Positions 40,531-51,545 of a DNA stretch of 64,000 nt are shown here, piece after piece. How positions within the stretch are numbered: the stretch's first letter is position 1; the number at the start of each line of letters is the position of its first letter. A program made the translations under genes and the position numbers. The stretch lies in assembly GCF_000027125.1 (NCBI RefSeq), contig NC_017626.1; one strand, 5' to 3'. The notes beneath the pieces were generated by a model, which was given only the letters and a program-made list of their open reading frames with translations, searched no databases and had not been told where the DNA came from. The DNA is from Escherichia coli 042. GTDB taxonomy: Bacteria; Pseudomonadota; Gammaproteobacteria; Enterobacterales; Enterobacteriaceae.

Positions 40531-40594
40531 TTTCACTTAACGCATTGATTTAATTAAATGATTTGCACTACAAAAAGTGCCATAAATCGCAAAA

Positions 40595-40616
40595 TGACTA
40601 CACCAGTGACTACACC
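40595..40616 (+). repeat. Tandem TGACTACACC x2 (arm-type integrase site candidate), left arm
   Basis: TGACTACACCAGTGACTACACC is identical to 51396-51417. Similarity continues for ~35 more bp (..TCGgTGCAC.., ..ACAACGTGgAACA..). Confidence 0.6.
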
Positions 40617-40934
40617 GTTCGGTGCACTGTATGAAACAACGTGGAACAAATAGACACAAGAAATATACAGGCGGGTCATCTTTCCAGGGGGAAGCGCGCT
40701 AATTCATGAGGGGCGTTAATGTTGATATGGGGATCCCCATAACGGGGCTACCGGATTTTTTTTCCGGTTAACTGTTAATCAGGCTGGTGGGCTTTACCTG
40801 TTTTGTAGGAGTGGTCATTATGACCATTCAGACAATGACCTTAATCAGAACTTTTCGCTAAAAAATGACGTTGGTCACGTCGTCCGGAAAGCACAAAATC
40901 CCGTCAATTTTTAATTAACGGTTAAACCGTCTTT

Positions 40935-40980
40935 TGTCACGGCGTGTCACTGGTTGTCACTCTCCGTCACGGTATGTCGC
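40935..40980 (+). repeat. Five TGTCAC-type hexamers at exact 10-bp phasing
   Basis: TGTCAC 40935, TGTCAC 40945, TGTCAC 40955, CGTCAC 40965, TGTCGC 40975. Lies directly 3' of the 93-aa gene. Confidence 0.7.
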
Positions 40981-40986
40981 TACTCG

Positions 40987-41268
40987 TTAACGCCGTAACC
41001 GCTCCGGCTTCTTCCAGTGGTACGTAATTTTCTCCGTTTCCCGATACAGTGCCACGCGGCGATTGTAGGCCAGCATTTCAAGAACGCGGATCCGTATGTT
41101 GCGCATATCCACATCATTAAGCTGGATACCATCACGGCGCATCACCTCAGCAACCACACGCGCGTAATTTTCGGCGGTCACGCTGTCCGGCTGCGTGGCC
41201 TGTTCGTCATGCTGCTGGCTGATTCCGGTAACGCGGCGGATTAATCCCAGTAGTTCGGCTTCTGTCAT
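40987..41268 (-). CDS. Hypothetical island protein (93 aa)
   Basis: ORF 40987..41466 trimmed to ATG 41268 behind a GGGGG RBS. The upstream part of the long ORF is just translation of the cos repeat. MTEAELLGLIRRVTGISQQHDEQATQPDSVTAENYARVVAEVMRRDGIQLNDVDMRNIRIRVLEMLAYNRRVALYRETEKITYHWKKPERLRR. Confidence 0.55.
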   Translation of the reverse strand: MTEAELLGLIRRVTGISQQHDEQATQPDSVTAENYARVVAEVMRRDGIQLNDVDMRNIRIRVLEMLAYNRRVALYRETEKITYHWKKPERLRR

Positions 41269-41301
41269 TGTGCCCCCATCGCTCTGATAGTCTGGTGTCG
41301 T

Positions 41302-41365
41302 CGGGTCCTTCCTGGAATTATGGCCCGTTACGGGGCGGCGACCTCGCGCGTTTTCACTATTTATG
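41302..41365 (+). other. Lambda-type cos site, copy 1 (cosN GGGCGGCGACCT at 41333-41344)
   Basis: CGGGTCCTTCCTGGAATTATGGCCCGTTACG|GGGCGGCGACCT|CGCGCGTTTTCACTATTTATG. This closely matches the recalled lambda right end ..GTTACG, the 12-nt cohesive end, and left-end nt 13-33. Confidence 0.8.
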
Positions 41366-41382
41366 AAAATTTTTCGGGATCC

Positions 41383-41479
41383 ATGTCCGGTTTCTCTGCA
41401 AGTTAACCATATGAAAAATATAAAAACATGCTTTCCATGAACCGGACATGCGCAAAAAACAGACACTAAAACCGGACAT
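41383..41479. promoter_or_regulatory. cosB-like array: three copies of ATGTCCGGTT (one forward, two inverted) around an AT-rich spacer
   Basis: ATGTCCGGTT 41383-41392; AACCGGACAT 41440-41449 and 41470-41479. AT-rich 41397-41430 sits between the first and second. Confidence 0.6.
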
Positions 41480-41547
41480 CGAACCAGTTAACCGAAAGTG
41501 TGCACAAATCACATGCATTGCTGCGAGTGATTAACAAGTTATCGGCT

Positions 41548-41982
41548 TTACTGTTCTGTATCGGCTGATTGCTCCATGCTGGCACGGCGAACGCTTATGG
41601 CATGACGCCACCCAGCCAGAAAGCCAGCCATTTTATTTCGTGCCTTGCTCACATCTTCCGGTGAATAGCCGTAAATCTGCAAACCTTCATCAAATCGATG
41701 TTCTGTTTCTTCACTGGAGTACTCGTCACGCTCAGATGAAAGCAGCCTGGCAAACATAATTTTTTCCAGCGCACTGGTTTCTACGTGATATCTGATGGTC
41801 TCAAGACGGCTTTTACCTGAAGACCAAAGCAATGTATGCCCGATGTGATAACCGCCAGACTTTCCGCGATCCGCATTAAGATACGGCATCCCCTGTTTGG
41901 TCCATGCGCGAATAGTGGTTCTGTTAACCTTGAAATGTTCAGCTATTTCCTGCTGACTTACAAAACAAGCTTTATCAATCAT
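41548..41982 (-). CDS. Nu1-like small-terminase-type DNA-binding protein (144 aa): N-terminal winged HTH, unrelated C-terminus
   Basis: FVSQQEIAEHFKVNRTTIRAWTKQGMPYL aligns by eye with lambda Nu1 VNKKQLADIFGASIRTIQNWQEQGMPVL. The gene starts ~70 bp from cos copy 2, as Nu1 follows cos in lambda. Confidence 0.7.
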   Translation of the reverse strand: MIDKACFVSQQEIAEHFKVNRTTIRAWTKQGMPYLNADRGKSGGYHIGHTLLWSSGKSRLETIRYHVETSALEKIMFARLLSSERDEYSSEETEHRFDEGLQIYGYSPEDVSKARNKMAGFLAGWRHAISVRRASMEQSADTEQ

Positions 41983-42050
41983 AATGTTACCTTAACTGCA
42001 TGGTTAAATATTAATCAAGTGGTGGTGGTGTCACCTTCACGGAAAAACGT

Positions 42051-42114
42051 CATAAATAGCGAAAACCCGCGAGGTCGCCGCCCCGTAACGGGCCATAATT
42101 CCAGGAAGGACCCG
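42051..42114 (-). other. Lambda-type cos site, copy 2, inverted (cosN complement AGGTCGCCGCCC at 42072-42083)
   Basis: The reverse complement is identical to copy 1 except 2 positions. Its CGCGGGTTTTCGCTATTTATGA matches the recalled lambda left end exactly. Confidence 0.8.
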
Positions 42115-42115
42115 T

Positions 42116-42138
42116 AAAAAAGCCGGATTTCTCCGGCC
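42116..42138 (-). terminator. Rho-independent terminator of the capsid operon
   Basis: Minus strand GCCGGA-GAAA-TCCGGC followed by TTTTTT. Same module at 44389-44410 and 44751-44773. Confidence 0.7.
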
Positions 42139-42143
42139 TTGTC

Positions 42144-44382: not shown

Positions 44383-44388
44383 GGGCGC

Positions 44389-44410
44389 AAAAAAGCCGGA
44401 TTGCTCCGGC
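44389..44410 (-). terminator. Rho-independent terminator (copy of the GCCGGA..TCCGGC module) after the 74-aa gene
   Basis: Minus strand GCCGGAGCAATCCGGC + TTTTTT. Confidence 0.65.
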
Positions 44411-44430
44411 TATGTGTGCTGTGTGCTGGC

Positions 44431-44655: not shown

Positions 44656-44750
44656 TGTTTTTTTCCTCTGTTGTGTCTGTTTGTTTCAGATAGTAACTAT
44701 GCCTGACCGTGACGAAAACCCGGTAATGCGCCATACCGTTTCAACTGGTG

Positions 44751-44773
44751 CAAAAAAAGCCGGATTTCTCCGG
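44751..44773 (-). terminator. Rho-independent terminator after the PerC-like gene
   Basis: Minus strand GCCGGAGAAATCCGGC + TTTTTTT. Confidence 0.7.
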
Positions 44774-44781
44774 CTGTTTGA

Positions 44782-51370: not shown

Positions 51371-51395
51371 GTTTTACCCCCTCTTTACGAAAAAG

Positions 51396-51417
51396 TGACT
51401 ACACCAGTGACTACACC
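51396..51417 (+). repeat. Tandem TGACTACACC x2 (arm-type site candidate), right arm, just upstream of int
   Basis: Identical to 40595-40616. Confidence 0.6.
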
Positions 51418-51545
51418 GATCGTTGCACAAAGGGCTACAACGTGAAACAAGCTGGAACAAGGAAAATCACAAATCTGTTGATAATCAAAAACATAATGCA
51501 CAGCCTGAAACATTATGAAACAGCAAAAAACACCAAATGATAAAA

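Follow-up and report, generated by a model that had tools for sequence, protein, structure and literature searches.

The three decamers beside the second cos site (cos2) of an EcCICFT073-type PICI are R3, R2 and R1 of a lambda-style cosB, i.e. predicted docking boxes for TerS. The same triad occupies the same position in PhiR12-type phages, is strictly tied to one class of TerS DNA-binding domain, and keeps its boxes conserved against variable spacers. Our results suggest that cos2 probably mimics the cos of helper phages and would be read by a PhiR12-type TerS without Rpp.

The window (i.e. the whole 64-kb stretch of DNA that was analysed) contains an EcCICFT073-type PICI that is ∼11 kb long and splits tqsA. 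According to an annotated record with 99.5% identity, this island encodes an integrase, a helix-turn-helix regulator, Icd-like genes, a primase and an SSB, together with a gpE-like major capsid protein, a gpD-like decoration protein and proteins of 137, 144 and 93 aa. Three features identify it as an Rpp-type cos PICI: (i) int, the helix-turn-helix regulator, primase and SSB are located between the split tqsA halves in the same record; (ii) an Rpp protein is encoded, i.e. a protein with a TerS-like winged-helix domain and, in the class definition, without a TerL-binding tail; and (iii) a cos with helper-like cosQ and cosN immediately precedes rpp (cos1). RppC (PDB 6hlk; E = 4.5e-31) is matched by the 144-aa protein, which is also nearly identical to the CFT073 RppA protein printed in Table S1 of Murialdo & Feiss (2022). 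The 93-aa gene accompanies the cos cassette in every island variant examined. CFT073 has the same gene order (RppA, 93-aa gene, capsid genes and inverted cos1), in an island located next to phoQ as opposed to tqsA in the window. No PhiR12-type or lambda-type TerS is present elsewhere in the 64-kb window; therefore, no helper prophage is visible there.

Several other features of the island were observed. The segment 42144–43973 (minus strand) encodes the gpE-like major capsid protein (Pfam Phage_cap_E, 5.5e-50) and the gpD-like decoration protein (5.1e-18), and for the 137-aa protein the match is to phrog_53, a head maturation protease family, over the scaffold-like C-terminal part of that family. 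The capsid genes are also present in CFT073, although EcCICFT073 was said to be without capsid morphogenesis genes (Fillol-Salom et al. 2018). Just past the 93-aa gene near the island end, five GTCAC/GTCGC repeats with a spacing of ∼10–11 bp (40935–40980; ttGTCACggcgtGTCACtggttGTCACtctccGTCACggtatGTCGC) resemble iterons or the arm sites of a recombinase. A direct repeat of 76 nt (76% identical, with GTGACTACACCAGTGACTACACC) near both island ends (40591–40666 and 51392–51467) probably belongs to the att regions. The terminator-like hairpin motif AAAAAAGCCGGATTTCTCCGGC occurs three times in the island (42113–42142, 44386–44415 and 44750–44779).

The cos cassette contains the following features:

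40987–41268, minus strand: conserved 93-aa island gene beside cos2 (phrog_1561).
41302–41379, plus strand: left arm of an inverted repeat (cosQ–cosN–I2 region), 78 nt, 91% complementary to 42037–42114.
41303–41309, plus strand: cosQ-like GGGTCCT of cos2, which aligns with cosQ of lambda, phage 21 and PhiR12_1 and fits the published cos2 string.
41333–41344, plus strand: cosN cohesive end of cos2, GGGCGGCGACCT (bp 1–12), identical in lambda, phage 21 and PhiR12_1.
41362–41374, plus strand: I2-like match to the IHF consensus, TATGAAAATTTTT, with 2 mismatches, common to lambda bp 30–42.
41383–41392, plus strand: box 1, ATGTCCGGTT (read as ccATGTCCGGTTtc), R3-equivalent, bp 51–60 from the cohesive-end start.
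41393–41439, no strand: spacer between boxes 1 and 2, 47 bp, 70% A+T, at the lambda I1 position.
41404–41416 (minus strand), 41410–41422 (plus strand) and 41421–41433 (minus strand): weak matches to the IHF consensus in the spacer (2 mismatches, consensus scan).
41440–41449, minus strand: box 2, gaAACCGGACATgc, R2-equivalent, bp 108–117 (ATGTCCGGTT on the minus strand).
41470–41479, minus strand: box 3, aaAACCGGACATcg, R1-equivalent, bp 138–147 (ATGTCCGGTT on the minus strand).
41548–41982, minus strand: rppA (redirecting-phage-packaging protein, 144 aa); it converges on the triad, and the other cos serves it.
42019–42036, minus strand: R3-PICI, bp 48–65 of cos1, AGGTGACACCACCACCAC, the Rpp target proposed by Murialdo & Feiss (2022).
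42037–42114, minus strand: right arm of the inverted repeat, which is the published EcCICFT073 cos1 (cosQ–cosN) and matches the published cos1 string.

The exact decamer ATGTCCGGTT is present in three copies on the two strands of the 64-kb window, starting at 41383, 41440 and 41470 as the first-pass annotation had reported, and is found nowhere else. The expected number of exact matches for a single 10-mer is 0.12, compared with three copies that span 97 bp, and chance is therefore excluded; by a hand estimate, the chance of two extra copies within ±100 bp is ~1e-7. Boxes 2 and 3 read AACCGGACAT, the reverse complement of box 1. Box 1 is inverted relative to box 2, which is the arrangement of lambda R3/R2, and box 3 is a direct repeat of box 2 at a distance of 30 bp. 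Other parts of the earlier description also hold: the first box, placed about 40 bp beyond cosN, begins 38 bp beyond the cohesive-end sequence; the AT-rich stretch of ∼45 bp is the 47-bp spacer; the succession of one box, AT-rich spacer and two boxes does resemble lambda cosB, with the R3-equivalent at bp 51–60; and the R sequence is unrelated to the lambda CGTTTCC. Scanning the spacer for the IHF consensus (WATCAANNNNTTR) gave best matches with 2 mismatches, where lambda's own I1 scores 1–2; a convincing IHF consensus was not seen in these 47 bp. Promoter and terminator scans found no promoter-like site overlapping the triad and nothing meaningful otherwise; a weak 5-bp hairpin that overlaps R3 is at chance level.

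This layout is shared with the cosB sites of lambda and phage 21, which are bound by gpNu1 and gp1, respectively. The triad comes directly after cosN and I2 (in phage 21, an I2 site is annotated at the position corresponding to 41362–41374), and its first box lies ∼50 bp from the cohesive-end start, at bp 51–60 compared with bp 50–65 for lambda R3. As in both phages, three copies of one box are present, with R3 and R2 inverted over an AT-rich spacer. In the phages that carry the triad, the TerS gene also comes next on the same strand and the box is specific to a TerS class. By contrast, (i) the triad box is (C)ATGTCCGGTT, while the box is CGTTTCC in lambda and CATGTCGG in phage 21, the latter resembling the triad box minus one C; (ii) the triad R1 is oriented as R2, while R1 of lambda and phage 21 is oriented as R3; (iii) no clear IHF I1 consensus was found in the triad spacer; (iv) the N-terminal domain of the cognate PhiR12 TerS lies outside Pfam Phage_Nu1 coverage; and (v) the island copy has no TerS gene after cosB, and rppA converges on the site.

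The triad is not specific to the island, contrary to the first-pass annotation. A blastn search with 41300–41545 against deposited phage genomes retrieved PhiR12_1, _2, _2_star, _4 and _5, with 93% identity over 41301–41479. The match runs from cosQ to the last base of R1 and stops there; past R1, the island contains unrelated sequence and then the rppA 3′ end, where the phage contains TerS. PhiR12_1 (PV340549) contains the identical triad, identically spaced, after cosN; its annotated Nu1 gene begins 49 bp past R1 and precedes terminase A, W and portal. The cognate terS gene expected next to a cosB on the same strand is present in the phages, at this 49-bp distance from R1 in 102 of at least 120 loci with the exact pattern and in 77/77 loci sampled through TerS. 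The island copy lacks it and has the convergent rppA instead. No paper describing the PhiR12 phages was found in our literature search.

We then examined how widely the triad is distributed. An exact-pattern scan of IMG/VR found at least 120 triad loci. Among the matches listed, 102 of these at least 120 viral contigs have a PhiR12-type TerS and TerL immediately downstream, 9 are islands with a convergent rpp, 8 are island variants without rpp and 1 is too short for classification. A second sampling via the N-terminal 80 residues of TerS avoids ascertainment by the DNA pattern. Among the TerS-ascertained loci with enough upstream sequence, the R3 box is exact in 77/77, and R2 and R1, likewise in 77/77, keep the same register and either are exact or deviate by one base. 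Single-base variants in phages are AACCGGGCAT and AACCGGATAT for R2 and AGCCGGACAT, which is common, for R1. Across 34 distinct upstream sequences, 27/30 columns are invariant in the boxes versus 51/80 in the surroundings (Fisher p = 0.009), and the 3′ third of the spacer is variable among phages. Across all phage and island loci compared, the boxes keep one register to cosN. At least five different cosN sequences adjoin the triad, which comes with TerS proteins that are 82–99% identical, and therefore tracks TerS and not cosN or TerL.

A further feature of most of these phages is that R1 lies within an 18-bp near-palindrome, AACCGGACATGACCGGTT, which amounts to a fourth, overlapping box with one mismatch (PhiR12_1, L002 3169–3190). 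The near-palindrome is absent from the island copy (41470–41495), where phage homology ends.

The PhiR12-type TerS protein consists of 169 aa, and its residues 73–164 are ∼46% identical to their counterpart in lambda Nu1. The match to Pfam Phage_Nu1 is limited to residues 49–150, and phrog_57 matches the full length; the N-terminal domain is therefore a divergent member of the small-terminase winged-helix group. A PDB sequence search with this TerS gave no significant match. The recognition helices of the TerS and Rpp proteins compared are:

RppA: NRTTIRAWTK.
PhiR12 TerS: TDRQLRRLQK.
Phage 21 gp1: DPRTIERWQS.
Lambda Nu1: SIRTIQNWQE.
N15-like TerS: SVQAFDKW.

These five recognition-helix classes pair with five different R sequences. 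In a GTDB scan for TerS relatives (one genome per species), we found 4 loci, two of which are IS-disrupted and two of which are N15-like domain swaps. Prophages of E. albertii and Escherichia sp. contain a TerS with the same C-terminal half and an N15-like N-terminal domain, and the domain-swap prophages have three GGTTGTTGT-type boxes at equivalent cosB positions. That a swap of the N-terminal domain changes the boxes supports a link between domain and box. The PhiR12-type TerS is the likely reader of the triad. Separately, one inserted C distinguishes the PhiR12-type box CATGTCCGG from the phage 21 box CATGTCGG (L003 216–331), and the recognition helices differ; this likeness of the two boxes may be coincidence or common descent.

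The two cos sites of the island can be matched to published ones. The cos1 and cos2 strings of EcCICFT073 are both printed in Fig. S1A of Fillol-Salom et al. (2019). Published cos1 (cosN ... GTGAAGGTGACACCACCACCAC ... ATGATTGATAAAGC) is the copy directly upstream of rppA, while published cos2 (...GGGATCCATGTCCGGTTTCTCTGC...GAACCGGACATGCGC...AAACCGGACATCGAAC...) is the triad-bearing copy, which the earlier annotation called cos copy 1. The cos2 of Fillol-Salom et al. (2018, 2019) is thus the same element, and its published string contains the three decamers. The 78-nt repeat represents two facing cosQ–cosN copies with the triad and rppA between them; the cos1 cohesive end runs from 42083 to 42072, and the rppA ATG lies at bp 102, in agreement with Fig. 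1C of Murialdo & Feiss (2022). Like the triad, the R3-PICI of these authors is a proposed non-lambda R box at bp ∼48–65 of a PICI cos; it differs in being located at cos1 (window 42036–42019, minus strand), and their analysis covered only the cos upstream of rpp and not the cos2 triad.

Published genetics distinguish the two sites. RppA–TerS acts via the cosB of cos1 and RppA boosts the transfer of cos1 plasmids (Fillol-Salom et al. 2019). Deletion of cos1 strongly reduces lambda- and phi80-mediated transfer, while cos2 is not required and its deletion raises lambda-mediated transfer; cos2 nevertheless works as a cos in both cleavage and transfer (Fillol-Salom et al. 2018, 2019). When cosB-swap chimeras were combined with RppA, only plasmids with the cos1 cosB were transferred, and a phi80 chimera given the cos1 cosB became RppA-dependent (Fillol-Salom et al. 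2019). The PICI cosB sequences were called ‘completely divergent’, with the repeats unmarked (Fillol-Salom et al. 2018, 2019), and the reason for two cos sites in some PICIs was left explicitly open (Fillol-Salom et al. 2019). Our literature search found no paper addressing the purpose of two cos sites, the phage origin of the cos2 cosB or the decamers; a search with the decamer matched unrelated primers only.

We also compared the cassette among island variants. Window positions 41375–41500 are 100% identical to CFT073. Compared with the window, the divergent yejO islands of strains Ch1 and LH50-c have changes at several positions in the spacers and at 0 of the 30 box positions, and their spacer allele is that of another phage group, which suggests repeated exchange with this phage lineage. 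The island alleles are closely related, and box conservation within islands is therefore weak evidence of selection. In the rpp-bearing yejO island of Ch1, the cos2 cohesive end is GGGAGTCGAACC instead of GGGCGGCGACCT, with the three boxes intact (L211 1459–1470).

Two further variants have different gene contents. In the O157:H7 island next to phoQ, a 180-aa TerS with an N15-like DNA-binding domain replaces rpp between the same flanks (L209 2528–3460); its cos2 position contains three CAGATCC(T/G)TTCT boxes in lambda-like orientations, its cos1-side sequence is GGTGGTGGTGGTGG-rich, and a 72% match to its cos2 cosB lies in phage SerU-LTIIb, upstream of a Nu1-like gene. The rpp-less variants (L038 9514–10050; also L005, L010, L018, L027, L041, L077 and L122) retain only a remnant of the rpp 3′ end, and their ATGTCCGGTT triad faces a complete three-box GGTTGTTGT-type cosB, i.e. 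the type of the E. albertii prophage. All three cassette variants hold a complete three-box phage-type cosB at the cos2 position.

The segment between the inverted cosQ–cosN copies (41302–42114) is found in both orientations among natural isolates: the order is 93-aa gene, triad and 137-aa gene in L027 and Ch1, and 137-aa gene, triad and 93-aa gene in L038 and LH50-c. Recombination between the 78-nt cos repeats therefore appears to invert the cassette.

Candidate helpers are abundant, since the gene segment for the N-terminal part of the PhiR12-type TerS is present in 1166/5426 complete E. coli genomes. Among the matches listed, 9/49 island genomes contain a second triad locus, compared with a 21% background of this TerS class, i.e. 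island genomes among complete E. coli genomes show no enrichment for a second triad locus. At least three of the nine island-bearing genomes (HM670, KE51 and E5) were confirmed to carry the phage TerS. In KE51 (NZ_CP141080.1), the TerS gene is at 2446824 and the island triad at 2486208, and in E5 (NZ_CM172488.1), they are at 2682946 and 2643668; both distances are ∼39–40 kb, and the cognate prophage may therefore sit close to the island. We rejected the triad as a match to phi4, the natural helper of CFT073, because the phi4 cosB is of the phage 21 type. CFT073 contains only one triad locus among the matches listed, and these two observations indicate that the type strain has no resident cognate phage.

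These data bear on three other explanations for the triad. The first-pass annotation regarded it as the island's private cosB, read by the adjacent RppA alone or together with the helper TerS. The layout is indeed that of a cosB at the right distance from cosN, the Nu1-like neighbour is a protein with a TerS-like winged-helix domain, and the rppA gene is only 69 bp from R1. However, the string comparison places the triad at cos2, and the published cosB swaps map the response to RppA to cos1; the site of RppA recognition is therefore the other cos and not the triad. With RppA, only plasmids with the cos1 cosB were transferred, cos1 is essential and cos2 is not, and cos2 deletion raised lambda-mediated transfer. 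Moreover, the triad is mostly found in phages with their own TerS and without rpp, it is kept in island variants that lost rpp, the RppA recognition helix is unlike that of the triad-associated TerS class, and rppA is convergent with the site instead of downstream of it. For lambda and phi80 helpers, a private cosB is largely refuted, and we consider it highly improbable overall. The triad is thus a packaging-specificity determinant in the sense of being a cosB, but it is the cosB of a phage and not the island's own. Even more improbable in our view are transcription-factor operators for the operon of rppA and the 93-aa gene, or for the phage late operon. Operators typically look like this, with inverted and direct 10-bp repeats between genes, and the region lies between rppA and the 93-aa gene, both on the minus strand; yet the triad overlaps nothing that resembles a promoter, every locus keeps the boxes in one register to cosN, a different TerS DNA-binding domain comes with a different box sequence, and the annotated R3/I1/R2/R1 of phage 21 has a parallel layout.

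Alternatively, the triad could be a passive relic of recombination with a PhiR12-type phage across the shared cosQ–cosN, with boxes that play no role in the island life cycle and a cos2 that is perhaps a mildly harmful competing site. The rise of lambda-mediated transfer upon cos2 deletion, the lack of a cognate prophage in CFT073 and the lack of co-occurrence enrichment among the matches listed are consistent with this, and the islands are too alike for conservation to decide. On the other hand, phage homology ends exactly after R1, i.e. only the minimal functional unit was kept; divergent island alleles change in the spacers and never in the boxes, and match different phage alleles; the three cassette variants all retain a complete three-box phage-type cosB here; and the phage palindrome overlapping R1 was lost while the three boxes were not. 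We therefore regard a passive relic as rather unlikely, and favour mimicry of a helper cos at cos2.

Under helper mimicry, the TerS dimer of a PhiR12-type helper would bind R3 and R2 as an inverted pair on either side of the AT-rich spacer and use R1 as an additional site. By analogy with lambda, the dimer may bridge R3 and R2 over a bent spacer. Binding would place TerL on cosN, and island concatemers would be packaged rightwards from cos2, with RppA not needed. For lambda, phi80 and phage-21-type helpers, the island would use RppA and the cosB of the inverted cos1, a part of the scheme that is already published. In this way, cos2 may give the island a second range of helper phages. A similar strategy, in which a satellite carries the helper's cos and is packaged by the unmodified helper terminase, is that of SaPIbov5-type cos satellites (mentioned for SaPIs by Fillol-Salom et al. 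2018). The island differs in that cos mimicry would coexist with Rpp redirection and that two inverted cos sites are present; the helper relation here is one that we infer.

A more tentative proposal, to which we give somewhat less than even weight, is that these islands carry a two-headed invertible cos cassette, in which each of the two facing cos sites has a cosB tuned to a different class of helper TerS and the heads are swapped by recombination between island and phage. In islands of the CFT073 and window type, the head formed by cos1 and rppA would hijack lambda, phi80 and phage-21-type terminases through Rpp, while the cos2 head would mimic the PhiR12-type cosB; roughly one E. coli genome in five has a PhiR12-type prophage, whose terminase Rpp may be unable to bind.

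In brief, both the element (EcCICFT073 cos2) and the concept (lambda-style cosB) are already known, and nothing categorically new is described here. An appealing but wrong reading is corrected, because the Rpp target is at the other cos, and the cosB of cos2 is assigned as the predicted docking site of a very common TerS class. With its unusually oriented R1, the triad defines an additional cosB specificity group. The published question of why there are two cos sites becomes a testable hypothesis, with available PhiR12 phages that plate on K-12. If it is true that cos2 widens the helper range, estimates of which prophages can mobilise virulence-associated islands would gain roughly 20% more E. 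coli genomes.
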